64,000 bases of DNA, taken from assembly GCA_963675295.2 (NCBI GenBank), contig CAXXKJ010000002.1, positions 3,520,001 to 3,584,000 of the forward strand, written 5' to 3'. This DNA is from a bacterium. GTDB lineage: Bacteria; Electryoneota; Electryoneia; Electryoneales; Electryoneaceae. Position 1 is the first letter of the stretch. Each line of letters opens with the position of its first letter. Below are positions 1,888 through 48,613 of this stretch, piece after piece. Made by a program: the position numbers and the translations under genes. The notes beneath the pieces were generated by a model. That model was not told where the DNA came from and ran no database searches. It saw nothing but the letters and a program-made list of their open reading frames with translations.

Positions 1888-3714
1888 TTACTGCACCAGC
1901 ATCACCTTGCGGACCTGGTTCAGCTTGCCCGGCACGGTGGCGTGGATGAAATACAGTCCGCTTGCCAGAGTCGACGCGTCAAAGCTGAGGGTGTGCGTAC
2001 CAGCGGACGTCGACCCATTCGCCAGTATCGCGACCTGTTGACCCATGGTGTTGAAGACGGTGACGGTCAGCTCAGCAGATTCCGGCAGGGTGACCTCGAT
2101 GGAGGTGGCGGCGTTGAACGGATTCGGCCACGCATTCGTGAGGGTAAACGCTTGTGGAAGATCCGGTGTGGACGCGAGATCCGGCACCTCGATCTTGCCA
2201 CCAGCCGTCCAATCCGTCACGACCGGACCGTCCGTGGCATCGGCGTGCTTCATGAACCAGAACGAGCTCGTGACATATGGGCCGGCGAAGTAGCCAGCGT
2301 ACCCGTGGAACGTGTAGTCGCCCGCGGGAGCGGTGCCTGGAATATCCTGAGTCAGGTCGGAAACGTGGAAATTCGCCCCCGCCGGCAGGTTAAACGTCTG
2401 CTGGAACAGCGGACCGATAACGTTGCCATTCGGCAACGTGATTTTGGTCCAGTAGGTTGCCCCGTAGAACGGGCGATCGAGGTTGTTGGTCAGATGCACG
2501 TCGTATTCGAGCGTGGCGCCGTACGCCGGAATCGTGACATCGTCGTCGGGAGCAAGCACGAAATCAATGGGGACAAATTCATTTGTCTGGCGGTACCAGG
2601 AAATGCCGGCGGGATTGTAGTCGTGGGCCAACAGCACATCGAATAGCCCGTCGCCATCGACGTCTGCGATATCGGTATCACCGCAGTAATCCAGTCCTGC
2701 GTCGATCACCTGCAATTGCCACAGTGAACCGGTTCCGGTGAGGTTGTCGATCCAATACAGCACACCGTCCAATGAGGATGTCACACTCAGATCGAAATCG
2801 CCATCCTGGTCAATATCCTTCACATCCATCGCGCTGGGGTGGCTGATGAAGTCAGTGATCAGGTGTTCGGTCCAGTTTGCGCCACTGCCATCATTTTCCC
2901 ACCAGATCACTTGGTCCAGGAAAGTCAGAGTGGATACGATGTCGAGATGGCTGTCACCATTCACATCAACCACTTCGATCCCGCCGAAGCTATTATACTC
3001 CTGTGTCGGATCGATCTCATGCTGGGTGAAGACAAGACCATTGCCGGAATTCTCCCACCAATAAAGCCTACTCTCTGTGATGGTGGTAAAGTCGAGGTCA
3101 TTGTCGTGATCGAAGTCGGCAATCCGGATTTGTCCCGGCATGGATGCTTGTTCCAGCACCATGTGCTGGACCCAATCCTGGCCGAGACCGTCGGTGTTCT
3201 CCATCCAGTAGATCTTGTGATCCCAGAACCAGTGCGAGATGACGGCGTCGTTGTCACCGTCGCCATCCATGTCACCGATACCAACAAAGCGACCGTTCGC
3301 TTCGCGCACCAGATCGGTGATGATCCACTGCTGCCAACTGGTACCGGTGCCATCCACGTTCTCGTACCAGGTGACCAGTAGAGTCGGGTAGTCGGACGTG
3401 GCAACCATGTCGATGTCGCCGTCCAGGTCGACGTCCACGCATTGCGTCGAGATCACATCGTCCAGCGTGCTGGTCACGACATGTTCCACCCAGTCGATCT
3501 CGTTGCCTGTCATCACCTGTTCGTACCAGGACACGGTGCCTCTGGTAGTCGTTCCACCGGCAGCGATATCCATATCACCGTCGCCGTCCACATCGGCAGT
3601 CTGGATCTGGCGTGGAACTTCAGTGAATTGGGCTACGGAATTGGCTTCCCAGGTCTGGGCAGTTACGAGGAAAGGAACAAGCAGCACAACGAGGTACATC
3701 CAGAAACGTTTCAT
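1888..3714 (-). CDS. FG-GAP/VCBS-repeat secreted protein with Ig-like domain and T9SS-like CTD
   Basis: Start moved to MKRFWMY (SD GGGAGG upstream); multiple DxDGDGDxD...W.EN repeats; WPNPFN...SGLYFI...KVMLVQ. Confidence 0.9.
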   Translation of the reverse strand: MKRFWMYLVVLLVPFLVTAQTWEANSVAQFTEVPRQIQTADVDGDGDMDIAAGGTTTRGTVSWYEQVMTGNEIDWVEHVVTSTLDDVISTQCVDVDLDGDIDMVATSDYPTLLVTWYENVDGTGTSWQQWIITDLVREANGRFVGIGDMDGDGDNDAVISHWFWDHKIYWMENTDGLGQDWVQHMVLEQASMPGQIRIADFDHDNDLDFTTITESRLYWWENSGNGLVFTQHEIDPTQEYNSFGGIEVVDVNGDSHLDIVSTLTFLDQVIWWENDGSGANWTEHLITDFISHPSAMDVKDIDQDGDFDLSVTSSLDGVLYWIDNLTGTGSLWQLQVIDAGLDYCGDTDIADVDGDGLFDVLLAHDYNPAGISWYRQTNEFVPIDFVLAPDDDVTIPAYGATLEYDVHLTNNLDRPFYGATYWTKITLPNGNVIGPLFQQTFNLPAGANFHVSDLTQDIPGTAPAGDYTFHGYAGYFAGPYVTSSFWFMKHADATDGPVVTDWTAGGKIEVPDLASTPDLPQAFTLTNAWPNPFNAATSIEVTLPESAELTVTVFNTMGQQVAILANGSTSAGTHTLSFDASTLASGLYFIHATVPGKLNQVRKVMLVQ

Positions 3715-3927
3715 GATCAAGCCTCCCGTTTGGATCTGGATACTCATGTGGTGGCACAGTGCGCCGTCCAGCCGACAAAGATCCACCCCCCAAAAACCGG
3801 AAGTTAGCACATTCCCCCGGCTAACTCAAAGCGATACCCGCAGTTTATTGACAATTTACTTGTTGCAATACCCAGAAAACCTCCGGAGACAAGATAAACC
3901 TGAAGCGACGATTTTTCCACGAGTACA

Positions 3928-6174: not shown

Positions 6175-6364
6175 GGCGAGTCCCCCTGGTGACCGGATTG
6201 ATAGATCGATGCAGATTTCAGAGTAGCAAACACTTTCTATTAACTTATCCGGCGTATCCCCGATCCGCAACTTCCGAGCGCTCCCTCCCCTTCTCCGTTG
6301 CCGGATTCGGCAGGCTTCAGTATCTTCCGGACCCATCCCACCTGCTGAATGGAGGACTGCACAA

Positions 6365-9801: not shown

Positions 9802-10196
9802 GTTCTCCCCCACAAGTCAGCCGCGTGCTATTGATGGATATGAATAACCTAGAGCTGAACAATTGACAGAGCAAGGTGTTGCGACCACCCAGCGCATGCG
9901 ACAGCCTGGACTGGACTCCGAGGGAACAAGATCGCCGGTGGCAGACGTGAAACCAACGCGTGCAATGGCTACCAATCTCTGGTCAGCCCCAAGGTCCTCT
10001 CATTTTCAATCGCTGGAGGTTTTCCCACATCTCACTCACATTCCGTGCTAGATTGTTGGGACGACTTAACTGAAATGCCATCAACCAGCGCCAGCGTCTC
10101 CCCAGCCACGGAAGCCCTCGCGCCCACCCCTGCTTTACCAGACCCGACCTCGGCAGGTACGAGCCTGCAGACACGAAGACGACAAGGATTTAGTGG

Positions 10197-11198
10197 ATGA
10201 ACATGAAAGACCTGCAGGTTGCAGTGCGCAAATACACGCAGCCTGATGTGACAAGATCAACCTGGCAGTTGTTGAATACCGTGTTGCCGTATTTCATGTT
10301 GTGGGGAATGATGGTCGCGTCCGTGATTCTCGGCCTGCCTTTATGGGTGACGCTGCTCTTGATTCCGGTGACGACGATTTTCCATATCCGCAGTTTCATC
10401 ATTTTTCACGATTGCTGCCACCGCTCGTTCTTCAAGTCGCAGGCGGCGAATCGTTGGCTCGGCACGATCATCGGGGTGATGACGTTTACGGCCTACGACG
10501 CATGGGCGGGCGAACACCTGACACATCATTCGAGCGTGGCAGATCTCAGCCGTCGTGGCACGGGCGATATCTGGACGATGACGGTCAACGAGTACCAGGC
10601 CGCCTCGAGGTGGAAGCGGTTACTCTACCGGGCGTTCCGGAATCCGTTCGTGCTGTTCGGACTCGGCCCGATCTGGGTGTTCTTCATTTTCAATCGAACG
10701 TTCCAGAAAGGCATGAGCAAGCGGGAACGGTGGAGCATCGCCTTCACCAATATCGCGATTGTTGGCGTGGCGTTGATCCTGAGCCTGGTGATCGGGTGGC
10801 AGAACTACCTGTTAATCAAATTACCGGTGATTTACCTCTCCGGCGTCTTCGGGATCTGGCTGTTTTACGTGCAGCATCAGTTCGATCCGACGCACTGGTA
10901 TGACCCGGAGGATTGGGATTTCTTCACGGCGTCGTTGCACAGCAGCTCCTATTATAAGCTGCCGAAGGTGTTGCAATGGATCTCGGGAAATATCGGACTG
11001 CATCACGTGCATCACGTCAACGCACGCATCCCGAACTATCACCTGCAGGCTTGCCTCGACAACACGCCGGAATTGCAGACCGTGAAGCCGATGACGCTAC
11101 TCGACAGCCTGAAGACGATCCGGATGAATTTGTGGGACGAGGAAAAGCAGAAGCTGGTCAGCTTCGGGTCGCTGCGGACGGTTGGACAAGCGACCTGA
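10197..11198 (+). CDS. Membrane fatty acid desaturase (Bacillus Des-like)
   Basis: His boxes HDCCH, HLTHH, HHVHH; WLFYVQHQF; RIPNYHL. Confidence 0.92.
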   Translation: MNMKDLQVAVRKYTQPDVTRSTWQLLNTVLPYFMLWGMMVASVILGLPLWVTLLLIPVTTIFHIRSFIIFHDCCHRSFFKSQAANRWLGTIIGVMTFTAYDAWAGEHLTHHSSVADLSRRGTGDIWTMTVNEYQAASRWKRLLYRAFRNPFVLFGLGPIWVFFIFNRTFQKGMSKRERWSIAFTNIAIVGVALILSLVIGWQNYLLIKLPVIYLSGVFGIWLFYVQHQFDPTHWYDPEDWDFFTASLHSSSYYKLPKVLQWISGNIGLHHVHHVNARIPNYHLQACLDNTPELQTVKPMTLLDSLKTIRMNLWDEEKQKLVSFGSLRTVGQAT

Positions 11199-11288: not shown

Positions 11289-14195
11289 TTACTTCATCAA
11301 CGTCACCTTGCGCACGGCGTTGAACTGGCCGGGTACGGACGCGTGAACGAAGTACAACCCGCTGGTCAGGGTAGACGCGTCGAAGGTGAGGCGATGGGTG
11401 CCAGCGGAGAAGGTGTCATGCGCCAGTGTCGCGACCTGCTGGCCGGTGATGTTGTAGACGGTGATGGTCAGGTTCGCTGTCTCCGGCAGGTCAACCGCGA
11501 CCGTGGTTTCCGGGTTGAACGGATTTGGATACGCCGCGCTGAGGTCGAATGTCACCGGTAACGAAGAGCTGCTGGTTCCAGAATGGTGTTCCTCGCCGGA
11601 TTCATCGAGCAGCGCTGTGCCGGGCACGCCGGGGTTGCCGTCGATCATGCCGGTGACCGGCCCGAGGCTGATGCTGTCGAAGCCTGGCTCGTCAATTGGG
11701 ATCGAGCTCGGGTTCTTGGTAAAGTCGAAGCTGTCTGAATTTGTCACCAGCGACGGGAAGATGCCGGTATAGACGCTGATCCGGTAGTCGCCTGCCGGCG
11801 CCACCTGCGGCACGTTCTGGTGCAGCAGGAAGTTGTGCACACCCGGTCCGGGATTGACATTGTGGAACACACGCTTGACATGCGGAACACCGCCGGTGAG
11901 GTAGGTGACGGTGATCCACGCATCAAAGCTCTCCACCGGTGAAGCGATGTCCAGCGAGGCGAAGTAGCTTAGCAACCCACCGATTGCAGGCACCTCAATC
12001 GGCGGAATCTGCAGCGGGGTGACGGTCAACGTGATCGGATCGGCCGGGATCGCGAAGGTGTTTTCCCACCACTGAATCTGCGATTCCTTGTTCGCGGAGG
12101 CGATCAGGTCGAGGCGACCGTCGCCGTTGAGGTCGGCCAGGTCGAGTCCGCGGGGCTTCTCGTAATCGCCGTGGATCAGGTGCATGGTGAAATTGCCGAA
12201 GCCGTCGTTCGCACACCAGCCAAGCGAATCCAGCTCCTCAGACGAAACGGCGAGATCCATCGTGCCGTTCCCGTCGATATCCCCCGCGACAACGTCGAAC
12301 GCGAGCGTGAAGTTCTGGATGATTTCGTGACGGGCGAAGTCCATCTGGCCGTCATTCTCGTACCACGCAATCAAGCCGCCGGCATACAACGCGCCCGCGA
12401 CATCGAGGTCGCCGTCATCGTCAATGTCAACCGGAACCGCCGAACGCATCCCATTCTGGCCAGACGCGATAATCTGCTTGCTGAACTGCTGCGCGCCATC
12501 ATTTTCGTACCAGACCAGCTCGTCCATGATCTGGCCGCAGGCGAGGATGTCGGTGTCGCCGTCCTGGTCGAGGTCGACCCCAACCGCGTCCGTCGCACGC
12601 GCGAATTCGGCGTCCACGGTGTGACGGGTGTAGCTGTTGTTGACATTCTCGTACCAGATGACGTCGTCGTCCGAGCGCGCGGTCGCAACGATGTCCATGT
12701 CGCCGTCAGAATCGATGTCGGCGGCGTGAACGGATCGGGCCTGGAAGGTGGTTTCGTCAATGATCAGCTCAGTGAATGTGAGGTCGCCGTTGTTGGTGTA
12801 GAGGCGAACATCATTCATCTCGCTGGCGGCGGTGAGGATGTCGGGGTACCCGTCCGCGTCCATGTCCTCGATCCAGAGGGCGTACACCCCCGGAAGGAAC
12901 CTGATTTCACTCTCTTCGTAGAGCTGATCGCCGGTGTTTTCGTACAGCAGCAGTCGATCGCCGGTTTTGGCTGCGCCGACGAGGTCAATATCGCCATCCA
13001 GGTCGAGGTCGCCGGCCTTCACGTCGGAGGCACCCCAAACACTGTTGTCCACGGCATGTTCGGTCCAATAGTCGTTGCGGGCACCGTACCAGACATGGAT
13101 TTCGTTCTGATCGCCGAGATTGCTCACCATCGCGAGCAGGTCCGGGACATCGTCCCCGTTCAGGTCGCCAACATCGAGCCCATAGAAACCAATCAGTGAA
13201 TCATCGACCGAATGTTCGATGTAGGCGTCATTGGCATCGTACTCATACCAGTAGATATCGTGATTGAAGCGTGACCAGCCGAAAACGTCCTCGTCGCCAT
13301 CATTGTCGATATCGATCATCAGTACGTCGTACGAACTGGGCGTGTTGTTCTCGAGGACCGTCGGGTACAGGTTACCGTTGCCATCGTTCTTGAAGATGGT
13401 GTAGGAATCATCCCCGTCAACAGCGGCGGCGATGTCGATGTCGCCATCGTTCTCGAAATCGCCGGTGGAAATGCCGCGCACATTATCGACATCCTCAGAG
13501 ATGATGTGCGTGGTGAACGGGAAGCTGCCTTCGTTCTCAAACCAGTAGAGTGTGCTGTTCTGGTTGCCAGCCGCGGCGACGTCCAGATCGCCGTCCCCAT
13601 CAAAGTCGGCGGCTTCCACATTGGTCACACCTTCGCAGGAATCGGAGATTACTTCCGCGGTGAAGATCTGATAGCCATTGTTCCAGAAATAGACGACTCG
13701 GTCGCCGTCGAACGAACCGGTGAGCACGTCAATGTCGCCGTCAAAATCGAAGTCGATGCACTGAACGCTGTAGATTTCGGACGAATTGGCGGCAATGATG
13801 TGCGTGGTAAACAGGTTGCCGCCGTCATTGTGATACCATTTGACGCGGTTGGTGCCGGAGACGGCGAGGTCGAGGGCGCCGTCACCGTCGATATCGGAGA
13901 CTTCGACATCAGTCGCGCCGATGAAGTTTCCATCAATGACCAGCGGGACATAATCTCCGAAGCCAACGTTGACCAGCAGGACGACGTTGCCGAAATCGTC
14001 ATTTCGTGAGGTGTAAACCAGGTCGAGATCGCCGTCATTGTCGATGTCGACGGTGGTCACATCGCGGCCGTCGTGGATGCCATCGACAAGCAATTGCGGT
14101 TCACCGAACCAGGTGGTGCTTGCGAAACCGGCGGGTGTCAGCGCGAGGATGGAGAGCAATGCGAGCCATCCGAGCACGTTAAGATGCCGATTCAT
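11289..14195 (-). CDS. Large FG-GAP-repeat secreted protein (about two propellers) with Ig-like domain and T9SS-like CTD
   Basis: About 14 DxDxDGDxD repeats; YPNPFNP...SGLYFV...RKVTLMK; SD GGAGG. Confidence 0.92.
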   Translation of the reverse strand: MNRHLNVLGWLALLSILALTPAGFASTTWFGEPQLLVDGIHDGRDVTTVDIDNDGDLDLVYTSRNDDFGNVVLLVNVGFGDYVPLVIDGNFIGATDVEVSDIDGDGALDLAVSGTNRVKWYHNDGGNLFTTHIIAANSSEIYSVQCIDFDFDGDIDVLTGSFDGDRVVYFWNNGYQIFTAEVISDSCEGVTNVEAADFDGDGDLDVAAAGNQNSTLYWFENEGSFPFTTHIISEDVDNVRGISTGDFENDGDIDIAAAVDGDDSYTIFKNDGNGNLYPTVLENNTPSSYDVLMIDIDNDGDEDVFGWSRFNHDIYWYEYDANDAYIEHSVDDSLIGFYGLDVGDLNGDDVPDLLAMVSNLGDQNEIHVWYGARNDYWTEHAVDNSVWGASDVKAGDLDLDGDIDLVGAAKTGDRLLLYENTGDQLYEESEIRFLPGVYALWIEDMDADGYPDILTAASEMNDVRLYTNNGDLTFTELIIDETTFQARSVHAADIDSDGDMDIVATARSDDDVIWYENVNNSYTRHTVDAEFARATDAVGVDLDQDGDTDILACGQIMDELVWYENDGAQQFSKQIIASGQNGMRSAVPVDIDDDGDLDVAGALYAGGLIAWYENDGQMDFARHEIIQNFTLAFDVVAGDIDGNGTMDLAVSSEELDSLGWCANDGFGNFTMHLIHGDYEKPRGLDLADLNGDGRLDLIASANKESQIQWWENTFAIPADPITLTVTPLQIPPIEVPAIGGLLSYFASLDIASPVESFDAWITVTYLTGGVPHVKRVFHNVNPGPGVHNFLLHQNVPQVAPAGDYRISVYTGIFPSLVTNSDSFDFTKNPSSIPIDEPGFDSISLGPVTGMIDGNPGVPGTALLDESGEEHHSGTSSSSLPVTFDLSAAYPNPFNPETTVAVDLPETANLTITVYNITGQQVATLAHDTFSAGTHRLTFDASTLTSGLYFVHASVPGQFNAVRKVTLMK

Positions 14196-15660: not shown

Positions 15661-15691
15661 CGTCTCTCGTCTCTGGTCTTTGGTCTCTCGG
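15661..15691 (-). repeat. GACNARA 7-mer array directly upstream of the ABC ATPase start
   Basis: Minus strand: ccgaga gaccaaa gaccaga gacgaga gacg gacttccc ATG. Confidence 0.7.
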
Positions 15692-15722
15692 AAAACAAAC
15701 TGCGTTGTTCGCGTTACGGTAT

Positions 15723-15885
15723 GTGCCCCTGATGGCTACGCCAGCAGGGATGAACAACCTGATACAAACTGTGAAGTGCCGGAGTATCCGCGTTTGCAAG
15801 CAAACACGGGCACTTCCTCAGGTGTAGTCTACCCCTATCGGCTTGCTGGTCGGGATGATCCGCGTTTGCAAGCAAACACGGGCAC
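15723..15885. repeat. REP-like cluster (REP-A, REP-B, GTAG-foot hairpin, REP-B)
   Basis: GTGC-CCCTGATGGC-tac-GCCAGCAGGG-AT at 15723; CCGCGTTTGC-aa-GCAAACACGG-GCAC at 15788 and 15860; both types recur elsewhere in the window. Confidence 0.85.
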
Positions 15886-15908: not shown

Positions 15909-15935
15909 CTACAGCCCGCAGCCCGCAGCCCGAAA
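15909..15935 (-). repeat. GGGCTGY 7-mer array after GWxTD stop
   Basis: Minus strand: TAG tttc gggctgc gggctgc gggctgt ag. Confidence 0.65.
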
Positions 15936-23150: not shown

Positions 23151-23187
23151 TTTCTCGTCTCTCGTGGTTCGTCTTTAGTCTCTCGGG
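23151..23187 (-). repeat. GACNARA 7-mer array directly upstream of the aminotransferase start
   Basis: Minus strand: ccgaga gactaaa gacgaac cacgaga gacgaga aaccc ATG. Confidence 0.7.
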
Positions 23188-23289: not shown

Positions 23290-23307
23290 GCGTTGTGAAC
23301 ATTATTG

Positions 23308-23398
23308 TTACTGATTACTGATTACTGATTACTGATTACTGATTACTGATTACTGATTACTGATTACCGAGTACCGAGTACCGATTACCGGCCACCGA
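23308..23398. repeat. 7-mer array: (TTACTGA)x8 plus 5 degenerate units
   Basis: Counted directly; abuts the stop of the minus-strand gene at 23401. Confidence 0.95.
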
Positions 23399-25909: not shown

Positions 25910-26266
25910 TCAGATGTCGAACGAATCCTTGTCGTAATCGCTGACTTCCGGCCGTGGGATGCCGCGCCTTTCGTCGAACTTCCAGATGAGGTCGAGGACT
26001 TCCCGTCCGACGTCCGGCGTCACGCGAACATAGCGGAAGTACTTTCCGGCCCAGACCGCGACAAGCTGGCCCTGTGTCAGTGCATATTCCACTTCGACCG
26101 GAGTCGAGAGCCTGCGCGTCGCTTTGCCGACAACGTATGTTGCCGCACTGAATTCGTTGCGTTTCACGATATAGTTCGCGCCTTCGATGCGCTTGTAATC
26201 GTTGGCACGAATCCAGAGGGGCTTGTTCTTCTTACGCTTGTAGAGCTTCTTTTCTTTTTCAGGCAT
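25910..26266 (-). CDS. Hypothetical protein with basic N-terminus
   Basis: Fills the gap upstream of the GT2 operon; plausible composition; no recognised motif. Confidence 0.6.
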   Translation of the reverse strand: MPEKEKKLYKRKKNKPLWIRANDYKRIEGANYIVKRNEFSAATYVVGKATRRLSTPVEVEYALTQGQLVAVWAGKYFRYVRVTPDVGREVLDLIWKFDERRGIPRPEVSDYDKDSFDI

Positions 26267-26358
26267 CGTCGTATCCCGTTATCCTGTACGCAACGTACAC
26301 ACAAGCCGTCAACATTTCAACAGCGTCATCCCGGCGCTCGCAATCGGGGGATTTACCC

Positions 26359-27102
26359 ATGTCACGTAAAGTTCTCGTCACCGGAGCCACCTCCGGCATC
26401 GGCAAAGCCACAGCGATCCTGCTCAGCGAACGCGGCTATGAGGTCGTCGCGACAGGCCGGAATGTGGATGCATTGAACGCCCTGAAGCAAGCAGGTTACG
26501 CGAGTTCGACGGTCACCGCCGACCTCGCCGAGCCGGAGGCTGCACAAGCTGTCTACGCTGAAGCCAGCCAGGGCGGACCGCTCTCCGGCCTCGTTCACGC
26601 CGCCGGCATCATCGGTACCGGAGGAATGGACAACGAAACCGACGCCGGTTTCGATCACATGATGAACGTCAATGTGCACGCCAGCTGGCGGATCATGAAG
26701 GCTGTGTGGGACGATCTGAAGCAGACGAAGGGGTCGGCGGTGCTGGTCAGCAGCGCGACCGGCCTGCGCGCTTCCGCGAATTTGCTCACCTACTGTGTCA
26801 GCAAGGCGGCGGTGGACCACATGGTGCGTTGTGCGGCGCTTGATGGTGCTCCGTATGGCGTGCGCGTCAACGGTGTCAACCCGGGCGTGGTGGTCACTGA
26901 GCTGCACAAACGCGGCGGGATGGATGTCGATGCGTATGCGGCGTTCCTCGAGCGCAGCAAGGAAACACATCCGCTTGGACGTCCCGGCCAGCCGGAAGAG
27001 ATCGCGGAGGCGATTGAATGGCTGCTCAGCGAAAAGACCGGCTGGATTACGGGTGTGAATCTGCCGACGGATGGCGGGCGGCAGTTGACGAGTTTGAGGT
27101 AA
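26359..27102 (+). CDS. SDR family oxidoreductase
   Basis: TGATSGIG; YCVSK; VRVNGVNPG; PLGRPG.PEEIA; DGG. Confidence 0.93.
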   Translation: MSRKVLVTGATSGIGKATAILLSERGYEVVATGRNVDALNALKQAGYASSTVTADLAEPEAAQAVYAEASQGGPLSGLVHAAGIIGTGGMDNETDAGFDHMMNVNVHASWRIMKAVWDDLKQTKGSAVLVSSATGLRASANLLTYCVSKAAVDHMVRCAALDGAPYGVRVNGVNPGVVVTELHKRGGMDVDAYAAFLERSKETHPLGRPGQPEEIAEAIEWLLSEKTGWITGVNLPTDGGRQLTSLR

Positions 27103-27105
27103 AAG

Positions 27106-27195
27106 GGGCTCAGGGCTCAGGGCTCAGGGCTCAGGGCTCAGGGCTCAGGGCTCAGGGCTCAGGGCTCAGGGCTCAGGGCTCAGGGCTCAGGGCTC
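27106..27195 (+). repeat. 7-mer array (GGGCTCA)x12 + GGGCTC
   Basis: Perfect tandem array starting 3 nt after the SDR stop. Confidence 0.97.
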
Positions 27196-27280
27196 GAAAA
27201 TAAGAAAATCCAAGAGAAGTGTTGGCAAACGGCGTTTCAACGAGCGTCGACGCCAACTGCGCTGTAGCTGAAGGGAAGCC

Positions 27281-27643
27281 ATGCGCGATTACAGGAAACT
27301 GCAGGCATTCCAACTGGCGAACCAGTTGGCGTTGGCTGTCTATGCCGCAACCCGGGATTATCCCAGGGACGAGCTGTTTGGGTTGACGTCTCAAATGAGA
27401 CGGGCTGCGGTATCCATTGGGTCAAACATCGCGGAGGGAGCAGCGCGTTCAACGGAACGAGATTATCTGCGGTTCCTTGATATTGCACTGGGTTCTTCGC
27501 TGGAATTGGAATACCAGATTACGTTGTCTGCTCAACTTGGATTTTTGAACAGTGACGTTCAGGAACATAACCTGAAGGACCTGTCTGCCAGGACATCCAA
27601 GGCGCTTCACGGATTGATTCAGTCCTATCGAGCCAAACACTGA
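27281..27643 (+). CDS. Four helix bundle protein (23S rRNA-IVP family)
   Basis: MRDYRKLQAFQLA...YP.DELFGLTSQMRRAAVSIGSNIAEGAAR...RFLDIALGS..ELEYQ. Confidence 0.93.
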   Translation: MRDYRKLQAFQLANQLALAVYAATRDYPRDELFGLTSQMRRAAVSIGSNIAEGAARSTERDYLRFLDIALGSSLELEYQITLSAQLGFLNSDVQEHNLKDLSARTSKALHGLIQSYRAKH

Positions 27644-27712
27644 GACCGCAAAATCTGCGATCTCAGATCGGTGACAGGCTTATCATCCTGTTACATTTCA
27701 GGTTCATTCGCT

Positions 27713-27768
27713 GAGCCCAGAGCCCAGAGCCCAGAGCCCAGAGCCCAGAGCCCAGAGCCCAGAGCCCA
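27713..27768 (+). repeat. 7-mer array (GAGCCCA)x8, near reverse complement of the 27106 array
   Basis: Reverse complement TGGGCTC vs upstream AGGGCTC (6/7 match). Confidence 0.97.
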
Positions 27769-27770
27769 GT

Positions 27771-27819
27771 GACTAGAGACAAGAGACTAAAGACAAGAGA
27801 CTAAAGACGATAGACGAGG
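27771..27819 (+). repeat. GACNARA 7-mer array (7 units) directly upstream of xth start
   Basis: gactaga gacaaga gactaaa gacaaga gactaaa gacgata gacgagg aacacccc ATG. Confidence 0.85.
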
Positions 27820-27827
27820 AACACCCC

Positions 27828-28610
27828 ATGCGCATCGCCTCATGGAATGTGAACGGCTACCGTGCCGTGTGGAAGAAGAATTTCCAGGAGTGGTTACCGG
27901 ATGCGAAACCGGATGTCCTGTGCCTGCAGGAGACGAAATCGTGGCCGGAACAGTTGACGAAAGATCAGCTGAATCCGTTTGGCTACCACTCGGCGTTCGC
28001 GCAGGCGGAAAAGAAAGGCTACAGCGGAGTTGGAACCTTCAGCGTGGTCGAGCCGGATTCGGTGCAGGTCGGGTTCGCGGACGGATCGCGGTTTGACAGC
28101 GAGGGGCGTGTCGTCATCACCGAGCATCTCGGCGGCAAGCTGCTGGTCGCGAACATTTACTTCCCCAACGGCAAGGCGCGCAAGGAACGTCTCGATTACA
28201 AAATGGACTTCTATGCGCACACGTACGAATATTTCAACAAGCTGAAGGACGAAGGACGCAACATCATCGTCTGCGGCGACTACAACACCGCGCACAAGGA
28301 AATCGACCTCGCGAATCCGAAGCAGAACGAAAACACGTCCGGCTTCCTCCCGATCGAGCGCGAGTGGATGGATCAGTGGGTGGACGCCGGCTGGCTCGAC
28401 ACATTCCGCCTGTTCGACCCGTCCCCGGGGAAGTATTCGTGGTGGGATATGCGCACGAGAGCCCGCGAACGCGACATCGGCTGGAGAATCGATTATCATT
28501 TTGCGACGGAGGGGATGAAGCACGCGATCACCTCCGCGTCCATCAGCTCCGAGGTGATGGGGTCCGACCATTGCCCGATCTGGATCGAGGTTGACGAAAA
28601 CGCACTCTAA
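27828..28610 (+). CDS. xth: Exodeoxyribonuclease III
   Basis: SWNVNG, LCLQETK, GYSGVG, YFPNG, CGDYNTAH, YSWW, GWRIDY, GSDHCP. Confidence 0.96.
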   Translation: MRIASWNVNGYRAVWKKNFQEWLPDAKPDVLCLQETKSWPEQLTKDQLNPFGYHSAFAQAEKKGYSGVGTFSVVEPDSVQVGFADGSRFDSEGRVVITEHLGGKLLVANIYFPNGKARKERLDYKMDFYAHTYEYFNKLKDEGRNIIVCGDYNTAHKEIDLANPKQNENTSGFLPIEREWMDQWVDAGWLDTFRLFDPSPGKYSWWDMRTRARERDIGWRIDYHFATEGMKHAITSASISSEVMGSDHCPIWIEVDENAL

Positions 28611-28627
28611 ACCTACGAGATGTGACC

Positions 28628-29428
28628 ATGAAATCCCGCGCTGGTATCCTGCATCTGCTGACTATCATCGTTGCTCTGAGCTGCCTTGCCCTGCCCGCGA
28701 CCGCGCAGCCGCCACGCACCGGCTGGTTTATCGGGGGCTCGTTCAACGCGTTCGAGTTTGCCGGTAGCGGTGATATTGTGACGATTGACGGGGATGTGAC
28801 CTTCGATGTCCAGGCCCGCAGCGCGTACGGTCTGGTGACGAACTACGTCAGTACATCGTATGAGGATATCGGCTTCGCGTGGACCAACAACCAGATGCCG
28901 GGCGGGAAACTGTCGATCGGTTATCGTTCCGGCTTCCACTTCGTGACTCATCTCGACATGTTCTGGGCGTGGCCTAAGAGCGAAGAACTGCAAGGCTACA
29001 AGCCGGACGGTCTGCCCTCCGGACGCGAGTACGCCTACCTAGAGCAGCAGGCGACGCATTTTTCGATGAAGACGACTCGCCTGATGCTGGATTGGCGTCC
29101 GTTCCGGCCGTTGCCGCTGTGGTTCTTCACCGCCGGTGTGGAATATGTGGAATTCACCTCACGGCTGGAATTCCGCTGGCAGTTTGAGGATAACGACACC
29201 ACCTATCGTGAGTATGAAGCGTACGAGGATGACGGGACGGCGTTCGGCGGCGTGATCGGCACCGGCCTGCAGTTCACCGGCGAGCCGGGCTCACGGTCAG
29301 AATGGTTTGTCGTGTTCACCTACAGCTACAGTCCATTCACCGGACCGTTGTTCGCGTGGGACGGCGACTTCCTCGTCGGCGGCATGGGGCTGGAAGGCGG
29401 CTTCCGGGTGTATCTCGGGGATGAGTAA
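28628..29428 (+). CDS. Putative outer-membrane beta-barrel protein
   Basis: Signal peptide; amphipathic aromatic strands; C-terminal GLEGGFRVYL. Confidence 0.7.
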   Translation: MKSRAGILHLLTIIVALSCLALPATAQPPRTGWFIGGSFNAFEFAGSGDIVTIDGDVTFDVQARSAYGLVTNYVSTSYEDIGFAWTNNQMPGGKLSIGYRSGFHFVTHLDMFWAWPKSEELQGYKPDGLPSGREYAYLEQQATHFSMKTTRLMLDWRPFRPLPLWFFTAGVEYVEFTSRLEFRWQFEDNDTTYREYEAYEDDGTAFGGVIGTGLQFTGEPGSRSEWFVVFTYSYSPFTGPLFAWDGDFLVGGMGLEGGFRVYLGDE

Positions 29429-29430
29429 AA

Positions 29431-29483
29431 GCCGGGCTGCGGGCTGCGGACAATGTGCCCCTGATGGCTCCGCCAGCAGGGAT
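29431..29483. repeat. GGGCTGC heptamers followed by a REP-A copy
   Basis: cc gggctgc gggctgc ggacaat then GTGCCCCTGATGGCTCCGCCAGCAGGGAT at 29455. Confidence 0.8.
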
Positions 29484-33677: not shown

Positions 33678-33724
33678 GCTGCGGGCCCTCGTCTTACGTT
33701 CTGGGCTGTGGGCTGTGGGCCGCA
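33677..33724 (+). repeat. Degenerate GGGCTGT heptamers after stop
   Basis: ggctgcg ggccctc ... gggctgt gggctgt gggccgc. Confidence 0.55.
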
Positions 33725-35220: not shown

Positions 35221-37269
35221 CTACTTGATCAATGTCAGTTTCCGCAGCACAGGTGCGTGTCCGGCCATATGCACGTGCGCGAAGTACATCCCGCTTGCCA
35301 GACCATTTCCGTCAATCTGGATGCGATGATGCCCGGCGGAATACGTGCCTTCGGCAAGCTGTTCGATCTCACGGCCCATCACGTCGTACAGGGTAACGGT
35401 CAGTTCGCCGGTCGCCGGTAACGACACCATCAACTCGGTGCTTGGATTGAACGGATTTGGCATCGCCTGCGATACCTCGAATCCGGTTGGAAGTTCCGAC
35501 GGATGCTCCTCACTCACGCCCGCCGTGGCCTGAACAATGACCGTCGTGCCGTCGAACGCTTCCAGTTCAACCGGCGTTTCCCCGACCTTGAGCCGGAAGA
35601 CACAGGTGCCGTCCGGATAGCTGATCGGGATCGCCTGCACCTGGTTGCCGAGGTTGTAGGCATTACCCGGGGTTAACGTAATCGGACCAAACACCTGGAG
35701 CGGGCCGAAGAACGTACCGTCCGGCCACACCATTTCGGTCCAGGCGTAGACCGTAATCGATTGGTTCAACGTGTTTTCGATGTTTGCGTTCCAGGTGAAC
35801 TCGTCACCCGGCGCAAGAATCACCGGGGTCGCGGAGGTGGTCAGGTTGACCGTCATGTTCTCCGCTTCGTCTGGGTATTCAAAGTTGACATGCACCAGCG
35901 GCTTCCCGGCGATGTCGAAGTTGAGGTACCACTGGTTGCCATCGGTGAGCATGAACGCAGGCGGCATCTCGGCGTTTTCAACGATCACCGGGTCACTTGT
36001 GTCGACCGGGATGGCGAAATCATTCATGCCGTGAATAACGACGGACACCGCGTGGTTCACGTTCAGGGCTGGCGAAACGATCGGGAATAGATTCCACCCT
36101 TCCATTACCGGACCGCTGTAGCTCCAGAACTCGCTAAAGTTACTGTTGAGATAGGTGTAGGCCTTCAATTCGACATTGTCGTAGTCGTCGAGGAAGTAGA
36201 TGTTTGCACAACTGGCGACTGCACCTTCGACGGGCGGCTTGAACATGATCGACAAGCCATTGCCGTCGGCGATTGTCTCGCTGGATTCGTACGAGCCGTC
36301 ATCGTAGCTGAGCCAGTCGCGCGGATCGACAACCTGTTGGAACAGGACAAACTCGTTGTTGGCCGGGTCGTCGGTACCATCACCAATGACGGTCATGGTG
36401 GCGGTGTAGTCACCGACCGCAGTTGGATTCCACTCGGTTGGGGTGGTGAAAGTGTAGCTCGAACCTGAGGCAAGTGTGGGTACATCAACGGTTGAGGTGA
36501 ACACGGTTGAACCGCCACTGTTCGTCACCTCGATAGTGCAGTCACCCTGCGGTGACGAGGTGGTGCCGGCGTTGAGAATCCGGCCTTGGAATGCGATGCC
36601 GTTCTCTGTCGTGACGTGGTAGCGATTCTGATCGTTCCAGGTGCGATACGCGACGAGGTCGTAGATCCCCGCGCCGTATTCCCCACCGGCTTCGATCACC
36701 CAGTCGCCTTGGCTGTCCAGTGAGAATGGACCGCCGCCGGCGCTGGACGCGACGAGGTTGGATCCGGACGATCCGTCCGTATCCTCGCAGACATTCCAAG
36801 CGAACACGTTCGCCGTGCCGACACTGATCCAGAACTCTTCGTTGGCGTCGAAAAACAGCACATCTTCACCTGGAAGCTCGAGTTCGAGCCAGACCGTCGT
36901 CGCTGTAACAACCTCCCGCGACACGGTACCATTGTAAGCCAACAGTTGGCTGCCGGGAGATCCGCCGTCATCGGCGTAGACACGAATGGTCATCGAGTTG
37001 ACTTCGGTGGTGTACTCTTCAATGAGTACGCGGGCGCCGCGCAGAATGAAATCGTCGTCCGGAATGAACCGTGTCAACGACCATTGCGGGTTGAAAACGG
37101 CTTCTGTCATCACCCCGGCGCCAGGGAAGCTGTGGTTGGCCAGTACGACGTCGAATTCATCGATCTCGTTGGTCGAAAATTCGCCGGGACCGACGTTTGC
37201 GAATGATGGAGTTAGAAGGAATAAGAACGCGATGGTGCAACTGAACACAAGGGTGGCAGGAAACTTCAT
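35221..37269 (-). CDS. Secreted multi-beta-sandwich (CARDB-like) protein with Ig-like domain and T9SS-like CTD
   Basis: Signal peptide; DD.ANN CARDB-like end; MPNPFNP...SGMYF...RKLTLIK; SD GGAGG. Confidence 0.88.
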   Translation of the reverse strand: MKFPATLVFSCTIAFLFLLTPSFANVGPGEFSTNEIDEFDVVLANHSFPGAGVMTEAVFNPQWSLTRFIPDDDFILRGARVLIEEYTTEVNSMTIRVYADDGGSPGSQLLAYNGTVSREVVTATTVWLELELPGEDVLFFDANEEFWISVGTANVFAWNVCEDTDGSSGSNLVASSAGGGPFSLDSQGDWVIEAGGEYGAGIYDLVAYRTWNDQNRYHVTTENGIAFQGRILNAGTTSSPQGDCTIEVTNSGGSTVFTSTVDVPTLASGSSYTFTTPTEWNPTAVGDYTATMTVIGDGTDDPANNEFVLFQQVVDPRDWLSYDDGSYESSETIADGNGLSIMFKPPVEGAVASCANIYFLDDYDNVELKAYTYLNSNFSEFWSYSGPVMEGWNLFPIVSPALNVNHAVSVVIHGMNDFAIPVDTSDPVIVENAEMPPAFMLTDGNQWYLNFDIAGKPLVHVNFEYPDEAENMTVNLTTSATPVILAPGDEFTWNANIENTLNQSITVYAWTEMVWPDGTFFGPLQVFGPITLTPGNAYNLGNQVQAIPISYPDGTCVFRLKVGETPVELEAFDGTTVIVQATAGVSEEHPSELPTGFEVSQAMPNPFNPSTELMVSLPATGELTVTLYDVMGREIEQLAEGTYSAGHHRIQIDGNGLASGMYFAHVHMAGHAPVLRKLTLIK

Positions 37270-37390: not shown

Positions 37391-39454
37391 TTACTTGATC
37401 AGGGTAACCTTCCGCAAGACCGGCGCGTGATCGTTCGCGAGCACAGTGACAAAGTAGACGCCGCTTGCGAGTTCGCGGCCATCCACGGTCACCACCAGTT
37501 CGCCCGGTGCATAGTGTCCATCAGCCAGGGTCTGGACTTGCCGGCCAAGCACGTCAAACAGCATCACCTGCAACTGAGACACCTCGCGCAGGTTGATCCG
37601 CAGTGAGGTGAGCGGGTTGAATGGATTCGGGCTCGGCTCACTGACGGTAAACGCCGACGGTTGCTCGGCGTGACTGGTTATCGTTTCGTCGACGGCCACC
37701 TCGATACGGGCGTTCACGTTGAATGCGTTGAACGTCGCTGTAACCGTCGGATAATCGCCGACATTCATCCGGAACATGTATAGCCCCTCCGGGGCGCTGG
37801 CCGGGATCAACTGGTCGGAGTGTGGCAGCTCGAAGGGCGTATTCGGCACGAGCGTTACATTATTCTGCAATTGCAATGGTTCGAAATGGTCGCCGTTCGG
37901 CCAGGTCATTTCGGTCCAGACATCAACGGTGTAGATCGTTTGCAATGAGTTGTAGATCGTTCCCGAATAGCCGAACGATTCGCCCGGCTCGATGTAGGGC
38001 TGTGTTTCATCCGGGACCAGCTCCAGATGCAGCAAGTTGTCAGCGGTTGGATGCTCATAGAGAATCTGCACCAGCGGCTTGCCCGGCAGGTCCGGATCCG
38101 GTGTCCACGTCGATCCGTCTGTGAGGAAATAGCTGAACGGCATGCGATCATTGGGGATGATCAGCGGTTCAGCGGTGTCCACCGGGACGTGCAAGCCGGA
38201 CTCGTTCTCGAGTACGACGACGATGCTGCCGGTGCTCAGTGGCGGTGAGGCGAGCGCGAACCGCATCCAGCCGCTGTCCACCGGGCCGGCATATTCCCAG
38301 AATTGGCTGAAGGTAAAGCTCTGGAAGGTGTACGCTTTCACTCGAACGGCGGGGTATGCCTGGTCAAACCAGATCCGCGCCTCGGCGGATTTTGCGGGAT
38401 GCTGGGCCGGGATCATCAACACACCGAGACTCTGTCCCAGCGGCATGTCGTAGATGTCTTCCATTGTCTCATCGTCAAAGCTGTAGTAGTCCCCGGTGTT
38501 GATCACCTGCTGATAGAGTACCGTCCGGTTGTTGCTGAAATCGACATCTCCATCGACAAGCACGATTACGGACGCCATATACTGCCCGCCAGCCGATGCC
38601 GACCAGGACTCGTCGAATACGAGTTCGTGCACACCGTTTCCGGGCAGCGGATTGAACGCCTCGGTAGTGCTGAAGATGAGCTGGCCGAGCATGTTCTCGA
38701 CCGCGAGGCTGCAGGTGCCACCGGGAGCCGGAGTGTCATTCAGGTTTTCCACTTCCACACTGAATTCGACCGTTGAACCGGCCTGCAGGTGGTATTTCCC
38801 GTTGGTGTTCCACAGTTGCGATGCGCGCAGGTCGACATTCTGCCAACTGGTTGATCCGCCCGCCGCGAGGATCCAGTCGCCGCTGCTGACAGAGTGGTTC
38901 GGGCCGCCGTTCATTCCGTCACCGGTCCAGCTGAGTCCGGCGAGGCCATTATCGTCCTGCACGACTGTCCAGTCGTTGTAATCTGGCACTTCTACGCTGA
39001 TCCAGAAGATGGAATCTTCCTGGAACACCCACCAGTAGGGTGCGCTCATCGGCACTTCCGCCCAGACCAGGTTGTCGATTTCGACGATGCGGATCACATC
39101 GTCGTTGTACGTGAACAGGAAATCGCCCGGGGTGTTGTTGCCGGAATCTTCGTAGACGTGGAAGGTCAGGGAAGAAATCTGCTGGTTGCCTTCCAGCACC
39201 AGCGCCCTGATTCCCTGCAGGTAGAAGCCTTCGGTGCAGTGGAACTGGGTCAGCACATACTGCGGAGTGTGTTCGTTTTCGGTCTGGTAGCCAGCATCGG
39301 GATAGGAATGGTAGGCGATGGTGTCGTCGAATTCCTCGAGATCATCGAGGCCACGGTGATATGCCTCTGCCTGAACCGGACCTGCCCAGACGGACAGTGC
39401 CAGCAGCAGTAGCAGAGTCAGGATCCGATTTAGAGGTCGAGACAAATGGGTCAT
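37391..39454 (-). CDS. Tandem paralog of 35221-37269
   Basis: Collinear motifs (EFD...H.S.P.AG, GDW...AGG, YDD/FDD, GKPLV, WTEM.WP.G, PNPFNP, APVLRK.TLIK); start MTHLSR. Confidence 0.88.
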   Translation of the reverse strand: MTHLSRPLNRILTLLLLLALSVWAGPVQAEAYHRGLDDLEEFDDTIAYHSYPDAGYQTENEHTPQYVLTQFHCTEGFYLQGIRALVLEGNQQISSLTFHVYEDSGNNTPGDFLFTYNDDVIRIVEIDNLVWAEVPMSAPYWWVFQEDSIFWISVEVPDYNDWTVVQDDNGLAGLSWTGDGMNGGPNHSVSSGDWILAAGGSTSWQNVDLRASQLWNTNGKYHLQAGSTVEFSVEVENLNDTPAPGGTCSLAVENMLGQLIFSTTEAFNPLPGNGVHELVFDESWSASAGGQYMASVIVLVDGDVDFSNNRTVLYQQVINTGDYYSFDDETMEDIYDMPLGQSLGVLMIPAQHPAKSAEARIWFDQAYPAVRVKAYTFQSFTFSQFWEYAGPVDSGWMRFALASPPLSTGSIVVVLENESGLHVPVDTAEPLIIPNDRMPFSYFLTDGSTWTPDPDLPGKPLVQILYEHPTADNLLHLELVPDETQPYIEPGESFGYSGTIYNSLQTIYTVDVWTEMTWPNGDHFEPLQLQNNVTLVPNTPFELPHSDQLIPASAPEGLYMFRMNVGDYPTVTATFNAFNVNARIEVAVDETITSHAEQPSAFTVSEPSPNPFNPLTSLRINLREVSQLQVMLFDVLGRQVQTLADGHYAPGELVVTVDGRELASGVYFVTVLANDHAPVLRKVTLIK

Positions 39455-39651
39455 TGACCACATCCCCTCACCGTACTCCTCCACAAGTATTCCCAACGTA
39501 CGGGAAAACAGGGCGATCCACCATGAGCACGAGCACATTGATACGAAATTTGTGCCCTCGTGCAGGCGGGATCGCGGAATACGGTGCATTGATCGCAGTT
39601 GCATAGGCTCGGACGCACTTCCCGGCTCACTGCACGAGTTTGATAGTACAC

Positions 39652-39680
39652 AAAACGGCCCGCAATCTACGGGCCGAAAA
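39652..39680 (-). terminator. Terminator after iorB
   Basis: AAAA-CGGCCCG-caatcta-CGGGCCG-AAAA. Confidence 0.65.
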
Positions 39681-39712
39681 GTTCGGAGAGCCACTTTAAA
39701 CCAAACATGTAC

Positions 39713-48317: not shown

Positions 48318-48406
48318 CCTGTGGGCGCTTCTATGCTCTGTGGGCTATGGGTTATGGGCTGTAGGCTGTGGTCTGCGGGCGACGGGTTGTGAGCTCGGGG
48401 CTCGGG
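48318..48406 (+). repeat. Degenerate TGGGCTN heptamer array
   Basis: tgggcta tgggtta tgggctg taggctg tggtctg cgggcga cgggttg tgagctc ggggctc. Confidence 0.75.
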
Positions 48407-48415: not shown

Positions 48416-48600
48416 GTGCCCCTGCGGACTTGGTCAGCAGGGGTCATCCGCTGGTGGATCATCCCTGCTGGCGGAGCCATCAGGGGCACATCAACAGACC
48501 GTGCCCGGGTTTGCTTGCAAACGCGGACACTCCACCCACGGAACAAACCCCACTCGTTTTACCTGCTACCAATCCCTGCTGGCGGAGCCATCAGGGGCAC
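48416..48600. repeat. REP doublets: (REP-A' + inverted REP-A) and (REP-B + inverted REP-A)
   Basis: GTGC...GCAC units at 48416-48489 and 48501-48600. Confidence 0.85.
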
Positions 48601-48613
48601 AAAACCTGCCGAT

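Follow-up and report, generated by a model that had tools for sequence, protein, structure and literature searches.

Why should a small protein gene be enclosed by two near-complementary arrays of tandem heptamers, in the junction between two other genes? The question is raised by a locus in a bacterium of the Electryoneaceae (phylum Electryoneota; assembly GCA_963675295.2), where a gene for a four-helix-bundle (4HB) protein of the PF05635 family lies between a short-chain dehydrogenase/reductase (SDR) gene and xth, which encodes exodeoxyribonuclease III. The stretch analysed is 64,000 nt long (contig CAXXKJ010000002.1, positions 3,520,001 to 3,584,000 of the forward strand) and is termed the window; all positions below are window positions. 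Intervening sequences of 23S rRNA that carry an open reading frame (ORF), as in Leptospira, Coxiella and others, gave PF05635 its name. The original prediction took the locus for a repeat-bracketed cassette that is processed out of a polycistronic RNA and/or mobilised, with a protein that may bind its own repeats. This interpretation is partly supported. The observation itself is real, and there is good support for a cassette and for its recurrence; taken as a whole, the reading of the locus as a mobile intervening-sequence-like cassette, whose arms would form a stem in the transcript, is the one to which the balance of the evidence inclines.

The cassette spans 27103–27770 and consists of a G-rich heptamer array, a short leader, the PF05635 gene, a short trailer and a complementary C-rich array. 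The 5′ arm starts 3 bases after the SDR stop codon TAA and contains, by exact count, 12 full GGGCTCA units and one GGGCTC; it is about five copies longer than the 3′ arm, which has eight GAGCCCA units. The order SDR, array, 4HB gene, array, GACNARA array, xth had been read correctly, as judged by the sequence, the ORFs and Tandem Repeats Finder (TRF; 12.9 and 8.1 copies). GGGCTCA has the reverse complement TGAGCCC; read in the same register, the 3′ arm gives AGAGCCC, one base off per unit. The best ungapped pairing of the arms extends over 57 nt, with 50 Watson–Crick pairs and 7 A·A mismatches; there are 6-bp blocks (8 × 6 bp) with an A·A at every seventh position. This agrees with the stem of about 56 bp with periodic A·A mismatches that had been described.

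Secondary structure modelling of RNA 27095–27830 predicts the arm stem enclosing the gene in both the minimum-free-energy and the centroid fold. The predicted energy is −317.8 kcal/mol, compared with −250.4 ± 7.0 for 20 shuffled sequences (z −9.65), none of which equals it. Several registers are open to this stem, as each arm is a tandem repeat. The locus has in common with rRNA intervening sequences the terminal inverted repeats that form a stem around an ORF. A repeat search of the whole window with a 9-nt seed found no other array hairpin; the arm pair itself is below the resolution of this search, because its longest exact complementary run is 6 nt.

Heptamer arrays as such are frequent in the window. 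About a dozen other intergenic sites were found by TRF and a period scan, and 7 of the 35 other intergenic gaps hold such an array (by crude gene calls). The distinctive feature is therefore the complementary arm pair and not the presence of an array. A C-rich partner is unusual in the window, and the two arms share GGGCTC/GAGCCC, while the other G-rich arrays have GGGCTG. In the rest of the 64 kb there are 2, 1, 0 and 1 occurrences of the arm heptamers and their complements.

To what extent does this layout recur? The comparison is based on 80 loci from species-representative genomes, with 10-kb flanks, kept among at least 601 matching stretches with protein similarity as the sole criterion. 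They are from Planctomycetota, Hydrogenedentota, Verrucomicrobiota, Acidobacteriota, Nitrospirota, Desulfobacterota, Bacteroidota and others, at 42–59% identity; the window's own genome and one 93%-identical relative (P0001) are outside this sample. For the comparison of the two sides of a gene, an array was taken to be a TRF row of period 7 with at least 2.5 copies; 77 sources, with 100 nt or more on each side, were usable. In the 80 loci plus the window, 116 period-7 rows are present in the 39.4 kb within 250 bp of a 4HB gene and 203 in the remaining 1,154.5 kb. Likewise, 80 of 147 gaps adjoining a 4HB gene have a period-7 array, compared with 60 of 596 other gaps (odds ratio 10.7, Fisher p 2.5e-29).

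Arrays are found on both sides of the gene in 26 of the 77 sources. When the reverse complement of the upstream unit is compared with the downstream unit in the best rotation, the distance is 0 in 8 sources, 1 in 15, 2 in 2 and 3 in 1. A distance of at most 1 occurs in 7.5% of cross-locus pairs, and none of 10,000 permutations reaches the observed mean. The one-base mismatch per unit that is seen in the window is the commonest state (15/26). The units themselves vary by locus, e.g. AGGCTGT/CCTACAG, CTTGAGG/CCTCAAG, GGGCTTC/AAGCCCG, AGGCGTC/CGCCTGA, GAGATTT/TCTCAAA, TGGGGAG/CCCACTC and others. Because they change between loci and yet stay complementary within a locus, the arms covary. In 44 of the 77 sources the ungapped inverted-repeat score is higher than the 95th percentile of cross-locus controls; the direct-repeat score is so in 11. 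The suggestion that other 4HB genes would be flanked by inverted arrays is borne out where both arrays exist, with 23 of 26 such sources complementary at 0–1 mismatch; it does not extend to the 51 of 77 sources without both arrays. A recurrent array-bracketed cassette is very probably real, and the predicted bracketing by repeats thus holds across phyla with covarying arms.

Variants of the layout are also present (L numbers designate the loci compared). Period-8 arms are found in L052 and L061. In L024 (7150–10650) four 4HB genes stand in tandem, each enclosed by its own complementary arms, with a unit that differs from gene to gene. In L031 the 4HB gene lies between complete copies of one array hairpin (9886–9977 and 10362–10457), which are about 90% alike including the 40-nt loop, so the flanks are direct repeats. 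RNAduplex on 250-nt flanks gave a same-locus median of −144.8 versus −126.8 cross-locus (p 7e-6), with the window scoring better against its reverse-complemented flank (−223.2 versus −184.9); this measure was judged too noisy. G-quadruplex formation does not serve as a unifying feature: the window unit has GGG, but most other units (AGGCTGN and similar) have only GG.

Evidence for gain and loss comes from cyanobacterial plasmids. A tblastn search of PLSDB with the window protein gave 22 records, nearly all cyanobacterial, and six loci were read. Three have clear inverted arms: Nostoc edaphicum pNe_5 with (AGTAGGG)n/(CCCTACT)n, Calothrix brevissima plasmid 1 with (GGGTGTA)n/(TACACCC)n, and Geminocystis with a period of about 6–7. 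With the two best of these loci as queries, the same plasmid collection yielded collinear relatives that lack the gene. At an integrase junction, Tolypothrix PCC 7601, Aulosira laxa and Nostoc carneum have an empty site, where the integrase stop is followed by 2–3 nt and the next ATG. The same junction is filled in C. brevissima (two plasmids) and N. punctiforme by about 0.5 kb that comprises 5′ arm, leader, 4HB gene, trailer and 3′ arm. About 10 nt are replaced, and the arrays are missing from the empty sites. The insert provides the integrase stop codon (GAATAAAAGGGTATAGGG); at the corresponding place the window reads GGTAAAAGGGGCTCAGGG. A 4HB or S23 feature is annotated under the match in 3 of the 25 records listed for the integrase-locus search.

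A second case is the nrdB–nrdA spacer, which is 40 nt in Calothrix NIES-4105 and 497 nt in N. edaphicum, where it contains a cassette antisense to nrdAB; here also the short form has no arrays. Neither filled/empty junction shows a visible target duplication. The compared records are only 85–91% identical, and small duplications could therefore have decayed. In these two independent plasmid cases the aligned junctions show arms and gene evidently coming and going as one unit of about 0.5 kb, in junctions of a few to 40 nt. The idea of a mobilised cassette gains from this, as the absence of arms and gene from otherwise collinear relatives is what a mobile insert predicts. It should be noted that mobility is supported by the homologous cases and not for this copy.

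Another of the six plasmid loci, in Pseudanabaena galeata (L081, 1280–1970), has its 4HB gene between cas6 and cas4. It is flanked by direct arrays, (AAAAGCT) × 14 upstream and (AAAAGCC) × 9 downstream, and there is an additional (AGCTTTT)n array upstream; it is an exception to the inverted-arm rule.

Arms also occur without the gene. Of the inverted period-7 pairs in the 80 loci and the window, 32 distinct ones surround a 4HB gene and 25, with no more than 150 nt between the arms, surround no such gene; 12 other pairs are direct. In N. punctiforme pNPUN01 (L091, ~1560–1750) a hairpin of about 190 nt, without a gene and with arms that match those of the cassette (GGGTGTN/NACACCC), breaks a 4HB ORF; this is a nested insertion, and no target duplication is obvious at this site. 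A divergent, frameshifted 4HB gene that the profile search missed is located inside complementary arrays (GAAGACC/CTTCTGT) in L028 (975–1516). The G-richer arm comes first in 21 of 24 pairs with the gene and in 21 of 25 without it. A polarity of the G-rich arm relative to the gene was considered and rejected: the order reflects an asymmetry inherent in the hairpin, and recurs in those that contain no gene. It says nothing about gene orientation, because such an inverted repeat reads alike on both strands. A possible reason for the order is that a C-rich arm that is first in the transcript would remain unpaired long enough to load Rho.

With respect to genomic context, the upstream neighbour is co-oriented with the 4HB ORF in 55 of 68 loci, the background figure for adjacent pairs being 529 of 837 (p 0.0013). 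For the downstream neighbour no orientation preference is seen (45/68, p 0.35). In six Pirellulales-type loci (L024, L005, L007, L010, L016, L022) cassettes are antisense within large tRNA gene clusters, with 13–24 tRNA genes per locus in four of them. The four tandem cassettes of L024 lie between tRNA genes, and L007 has gene-less heptamer hairpins in inter-tRNA spacers.

The window protein is a clear member of its family (PF05635, 107 bits, cut-off 33.8, E 7.3e-31; TIGR02436, 107.1 bits, cut-off 24, E 5e-31). It has a predicted isoelectric point (pI) of 9.05 and matches Xcc0516 (PDB 2gsc) by phmmer with E 5.6e-21. The AlphaFold2 model (pLDDT 95) has four helices, at residues 4–23, 35–54, 59–85 and 92–118. 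By Foldseek the model superimposes on Xcc0516 with a TM of 0.90 and on BT_0352 (2rld) with 0.82, as expected of this fold. Its similarity to Avd, the accessory protein of diversity-generating retroelements (DGRs), is TM 0.79–0.85 at 11–12% identity (4dwl alone, with 0.79; 8ub7 and 8ub8 in the DGR ribonucleoprotein). The proposed Avd-like four-helix bundle is therefore upheld by the predicted structure. The protein is not an Avd by the equivalog model NF033474, which gives 23.1 bits where the cut-off is 80. A Pfam scan of 43 window ORFs brought up no reverse-transcriptase family, and there was no sign of template or variable repeats. The 2gsc entry contains five chains, and Xcc0516 has been called a homopentamer (PMC4990558).

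A length-limited search with a threshold of E ≤ 1e-5 gave 4,310 relatives of the window protein, of which P0001 is 93% identical and all others at most 70%. In an alignment of 44 sequences at about 60% identity (the window protein and 43 relatives) 22 columns are invariant, which argues for a functional protein. Of the motif GxxRxxxSxxxNxxE that has been reported for the family (PMC3936711), R41, S45, N49 and E52 are invariant or nearly so, and the first position is Q38 instead of G.

The features of the locus are collected in Table 1. The 4HB gene is on the same strand as SDR and xth, and has a Shine–Dalgarno-like GAAGGGA in its leader, 5 nt 5′ of the ATG. Both arms are non-coding, lie outside ORFs, and are built of head-to-tail 7-nt units like the simple repeats of the short tandemly repeated repetitive (STRR) type. 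The lower GC content of the 4HB gene had been noted at the outset; the GC values, and those for third codon positions, are 0.515/0.562 for this gene, 0.624/0.734 for SDR and 0.579/0.797 for xth. The gene is the sole PF05635/TIGR02436-type ORF in the window.

One component of the original prediction has to be removed. The degenerate GACNARA array had been counted with the element, but the same motif directly precedes two other start codons in the window. The array is for this reason judged to be a recurrent 5′-leader motif of the genome; it is part of the xth leader and outside the cassette. The TAACTGA repeats of Beggiatoaceae are similarly found 5′ of start codons (PMC4679880).

Table 1. Positions of the cassette parts, the adjoining genes and the related leader arrays in the window
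Feature	Position	Strand	Remarks
SDR gene, upstream host gene	26359..27102	+	PF13561 E 5.8e-49, PF00106 E 6.6e-40; stop TAA
5′ arm (GGGCTCA) × 12.9, perfect tandem array	27106..27195	+	TRF period 7, 100% matches, score 180
85-nt leader of 4HB gene	27196..27280	+	GC 0.506
4HB protein gene, 120 aa (23S rRNA intervening-sequence protein/S23p family)	27281..27643	+	PF05635, TIGR02436
69-nt trailer, 4HB stop to 3′ arm	27644..27712	+	GC 0.464
3′ arm (GAGCCCA) × 8.1, perfect tandem array	27713..27769	+	TRF period 7, 100% matches, score 114
Degenerate (GACNARA) × ~7 array; GAGACNA-type (GAGACNAAGAC...) leader array directly 5′ of xth ATG	27771..27815	+	TRF (27771–27808/27815, unit GACNAGA)
xth (exodeoxyribonuclease III), downstream host gene	27828..28610	+	TIGR00633 E 3e-89, TIGR00195 E 1.1e-86
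Near-identical GAGACNAAGAC... leader array	23153..23185	-	directly 5′ of aminotransferase gene ATG at 23147
Near-identical GAGACNAAGAC... leader array	15661..15690	-	directly 5′ of ABC ATPase gene ATG near 15648

Several searches define what the locus is not. Rfam at gathering scores gave zero families in the whole window, rRNA included, and the cassette is not inside a 23S rRNA gene (helix 25 or 45). A tRNA scan of the window found none. A scan of 26200–28800 for promoters and terminators, with the sigma-70 consensus only, found none inside the cassette, and counts were at the level of shuffled sequence. As had been stated, there is no sign of a target duplication: no direct repeat flanking the arms was seen in the window. 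The 4HB gene is the only ORF in the cassette, and neither a DDE transposon nor a miniature inverted-repeat transposable element (MITE) describes the locus.

Among the closest known systems are the rRNA intervening sequences. One of 428 nt has a 28-bp terminal stem that is cut by RNase III, with an S23p ORF in the loop, and tandem heptamers of strain-variable copy number upstream of this ORF (PMC4990558). The same paper credits earlier authors with the hypotheses that such elements are remnants of transposition, or mobile elements whose ORF serves mobility. The window cassette resembles them in protein family, in stem-forming terminal inverted repeats around an ORF, in size (~0.4–0.7 kb) and in its position within a longer transcript. 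It differs in its host, an mRNA/intergenic junction instead of 23S helix 25 or 45, and in having its whole stem made of two heptamer arrays. RNase III cutting is established for the rRNA elements and would apply to the window cassette by analogy.

The protein family has been found in other settings: 18 PF05635-family genes are inside cas loci, e.g. between cmr3 and cmr2 (PMC3936711), and the family is present in rRNA insertions of Candidate Phyla Radiation bacteria (10.1101/2024.02.27.582315). Its proteins are described as functionally uncharacterised (10.1101/2024.02.27.582315; PMC4990558), and their resemblance to Avd has been pointed out (PMC10053308). The window protein and Avd share the 4HB fold, small size, basic character and relatedness at the family level; the low sequence identity and the lack of a reverse transcriptase among the scanned ORFs set them apart. 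Short intergenic inverted repeats, gene-less beside gene-bearing copies (25 versus 32 pairs), presence/absence and nested insertion are properties that the cassettes have in common with MITEs and REPINs. Unlike these, the sole gene encodes a 4HB protein without a known catalytic fold, the tandem-array arms differ between copies, and no target duplication was seen.

Heptamer repeats are over-represented in bacteria, and a detailed literature on heptameric repeats is lacking according to PMC4692102. Xanthomonas GGGAATC arrays have conserved intergenic positions, form G-quadruplexes and include 70–75 convergent inverted pairs (PMC4692102). TAACTGA repeats are upstream of start codons, translational regulation by heptamer repeats has been proposed, and CspB binds such repeats (PMC4679880). 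These repeats and the STRR of Calothrix/Nostoc share with the arms the tandem 7-mers, an intergenic position near a stop or start codon, frequent G-richness and variable copy number. The two papers treat the repeats as G-quadruplex-forming or regulatory, but here the arms enclose a 4HB gene and act as one insertion unit. In the main texts, by term and with supplements aside, XCC0516 is absent from PMC4692102, and ‘four helix’, ‘S23’ and ‘intervening sequence’ are absent from PMC4679880. A full-text literature search, with supplements and subscription journals outside it, found no paper that joins the PF05635 family to inverted heptamer arrays. Thus, no description was found of this cross-phylum architecture, an intervening-sequence-like selfish cassette outside rRNA with arms of tandem heptamers.

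How might such a cassette persist? It is proposed that it inserted as a unit into the SDR–xth junction and is transcribed with both genes; that this copy was acquired as a unit is probable. In the transcript the arms would zip into a stem of about 56 bp, with 6-bp helices split by A·A mismatches. A stem made of two arrays could nucleate in any register, which is a possible reason for arrays closing a 500-nt loop. By analogy with rRNA intervening sequences (PMC4990558), RNase III would cut the arm stem; the cuts would set free the mRNA of the 4HB gene and part the SDR message from that of xth, which would make the insert tolerable. Formation of the stem together with processing by RNase III is put at slightly under an even chance. 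Probably the arms serve in addition as the cis sites at which the element moves, by a mechanism without obvious target duplication, and the basic Avd-like protein may be the nucleic-acid-binding factor of the element. Action of the protein on its own arms, suggested by analogy, seems doubtful. Arm sequences are too variable for one sequence-specific enzyme. The preferred speculation is that movement is structure-specific, by way of a hairpin formed by RNA or single-stranded DNA, and that the Avd-like protein assists as a cofactor. Template switching between quasi-palindromic arms could keep them complementary without selection.

A number of observations weigh against this proposal. The majority of usable sources lack TRF arrays on both sides of the gene, as mentioned, and in 33 of 77 the inverted-repeat score is not above control. 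Of the plasmid loci, those without clear inverted arms have direct-orientation arrays (L081) or weak/non-inverted arrays (L082, L084). Some copies are antisense to the host operon (nrdAB in L083; the tRNA clusters), and read-through expression is therefore not general. GGGCTGN arrays follow several other stop codons of this genome, which makes the 5′ arm alone unremarkable. The mismatches in 44 stems comprise 40 of G·U type and 33 of A·C type (p 0.48); with no G·U excess, there is no RNA-specific signature in the stems. In addition, no match listed in the genome scan is more than 59% identical, close relatives being outside the comparison, and the gap statistics are based on crude gene calls from a longest-ORF heuristic.

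The balance of G·U and A·C mismatches would suit a different reading, in which the arms act at the DNA level only. They would be terminal inverted repeats or hairpin/cruciform ends, moved by a host or trans-acting enzyme; the RNA stem would be a by-product, with no role for RNase III. Complementarity would be kept by descent plus templated correction of the arms, and template-switch correction of quasi-palindromes is an established mutational process, which is to the credit of this reading. A single-stranded DNA fold gives the same stem (z −9.76). The gain and loss of arms and gene as a unit, the gene-less hairpin inserted inside a coding sequence in L091 and the copies antisense to host transcripts fit as well, and the fixed G-rich-first order is expected of oriented element ends. 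On the other hand, there is no transposase or recombinase in or beside the cassettes, and no target duplication was seen. The unit of the arms varies greatly from copy to copy, and does so even inside a single locus, which is awkward for a sequence-specific enzyme. The preferential co-orientation of the upstream neighbour and the RNA-level processing of the homologous rRNA elements (PMC4990558) are not what a role in DNA alone would predict. This reading is considered unlikely, though it is compatible with the proposed cassette that forms a stem in RNA.

Could the host benefit from the module? Heptamer arrays might be general post-transcriptional signals that the 4HB protein binds in trans, with its own gene carrying two of them. 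In the window, arrays do stand directly before three start codons and after several stops. Proposals of translational regulation and the binding of CspB (PMC4679880), and the conserved intergenic positions in Xanthomonas (PMC4692102), are in keeping with such a role, as are the basic nature of the protein (pI 9.05) and its similarity in fold to the RNA-associated Avd. A regulatory module is improbable, however, given presence/absence between close relatives in junctions that work without the cassette, a 4HB gene of lower GC than its neighbours, copies that are multiple, tandem and pseudogenised, and an arm unit that is specific to the copy and not genome-wide. It might also be asked whether the arms are merely slippage-generated simple repeats of a heptamer-rich genome, between which a 4HB gene happens to lie. 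The arrays in 7 of 35 other window gaps, the GGGCTGN arrays after other stops and the over-representation of heptamers in print (PMC4692102) would be in its favour. Coincidence is nevertheless largely refuted and highly improbable: the arms share GGGCTC/GAGCCC, unlike the GGGCTG arrays of the window, the odds ratio beside 4HB genes is 10.7, arm complementarity is not matched in 10,000 permutations, and the arrays are missing from empty sites. As to an assembly artefact from collapsed or chimeric short-read repeats, perfect arrays of 90 and 57 nt are indeed hard for assemblers. Yet the same architecture is seen in complete plasmid records of cultured cyanobacteria and in isolate genomes, e.g. 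Rubripirellula obstinata and Stieleria sedimenti; a typical read pair is longer than either array, and the unique flanks are continuous with intact genes. An artefact is scarcely credible.

A more far-reaching possibility, rather unlikely on present evidence, is that the 4HB gene and its arms together represent the autonomous version of a mobile element of a new class. Array hairpins without the gene would be its non-autonomous derivatives, and rRNA intervening sequences would be the same element landed in rRNA. Perhaps many solo arrays would then be derivatives also, such as cyanobacterial STRR, the Xanthomonas GGGAATC pairs and the Pirellulales inter-tRNA hairpins. Recognition of the register-tolerant ‘zipper’ stem, whether RNA or single-stranded DNA, would fall to the pentameric Avd-like protein, which would bring in host enzymes for copying or moving the element. 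If true, three long-unexplained features of bacterial genomes would have one origin.

What the results do is tie the PF05635 family to heptamer repeats, as the family carries covarying inverted arrays and comes and goes with them as a unit. The thousands of PF05635 proteins are encoded in such varied places as operons, cas loci, tRNA clusters and rRNA genes, and the intergenic heptamer repeats of cyanobacteria, Xanthomonas and Beggiatoaceae have no agreed function (PMC4692102, PMC4679880). This raises the question of whether mRNAs can contain self-excising ‘introns without splicing’, how an element moves without a recognisable transposase, and what role an Avd-like protein has outside a diversity-generating retroelement. 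Cultured carriers that are not pathogens make the question testable: Nostoc punctiforme PCC 73102, Calothrix brevissima NIES-22 and Rubripirellula obstinata.

Other repeats of the window may be described briefly. G-rich GGGCTGN arrays with no complementary partner nearby, i.e. solo arms, are located at 29433–29449, 33702–33720, 15912–15932 (minus strand) and 48330–48406. GGGCTGN arrays stand directly 3′ of the stop codons of genes that end at 29428, 33677 and 15936 (minus strand). Between the stop of a BadF/BcrA-type ATPase gene and the aminotransferase leader, at 23302–23390, there is a (TTACTGA) × 11.6 array that grades into TTACCGA-type units. The TTACTGA unit is one base from the TAACTGA repeat of Beggiatoaceae, cyanobacteria and Bacteroidetes. 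At 1787–1883, between convergent genes, a 20-bp hairpin that is 95% complementary (1787–1830) is followed by a degenerate heptamer pair (TCTCAAG... / ...AAGACTC), perhaps a second hairpin.

Two intergenic repeat families have the look of repetitive extragenic palindromes (REPs). A 26-nt palindromic repeat is present in four copies (15788–15813, 15860–15885, 48501–48526, 61811–61836) and a 31-nt repeat in five (15721–15751, 29453–29483, 48461–48491, 48572–48602, 59302–59332). Neither was found in shuffled sequence, and they often adjoin each other and heptamer arrays. The arms of the cassette are tandem arrays and not REPs.

The claim that there is no transposase is correct for the locus itself; 33 kb from the cassette there is a gene for an IS200/IS605-family Y1 (HUH) transposase, TnpA, at 60546–61004 on the minus strand (NF033573, E 4.8e-37), and no evidence in the window ties it to the cassette. 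It scores 127 bits with the IS200 model and 34 bits with the model for REP-associated tyrosine transposases (RAYT; cut-off 80), and is not of the REP/RAYT type. About 0.8 kb from the tnpA gene, at 61811–61881, a copy of the 26-nt repeat is found together with a (CCTCACA) × 5 array.

Lastly, a pointer to the lineage of the organism comes from seven large ORFs that match the C-terminal sorting domain of type IX secretion (Por_Secre_tail): 134–1756, 1891–3810, 3994–6336, 11292–14195, 35224–37269, 37394–39694 and 53348–55591. The ORF at 37394–39694 is marginally under the cut-off (26.8 versus 27 bits), and several of the seven also have FG-GAP or LVIVD repeats.

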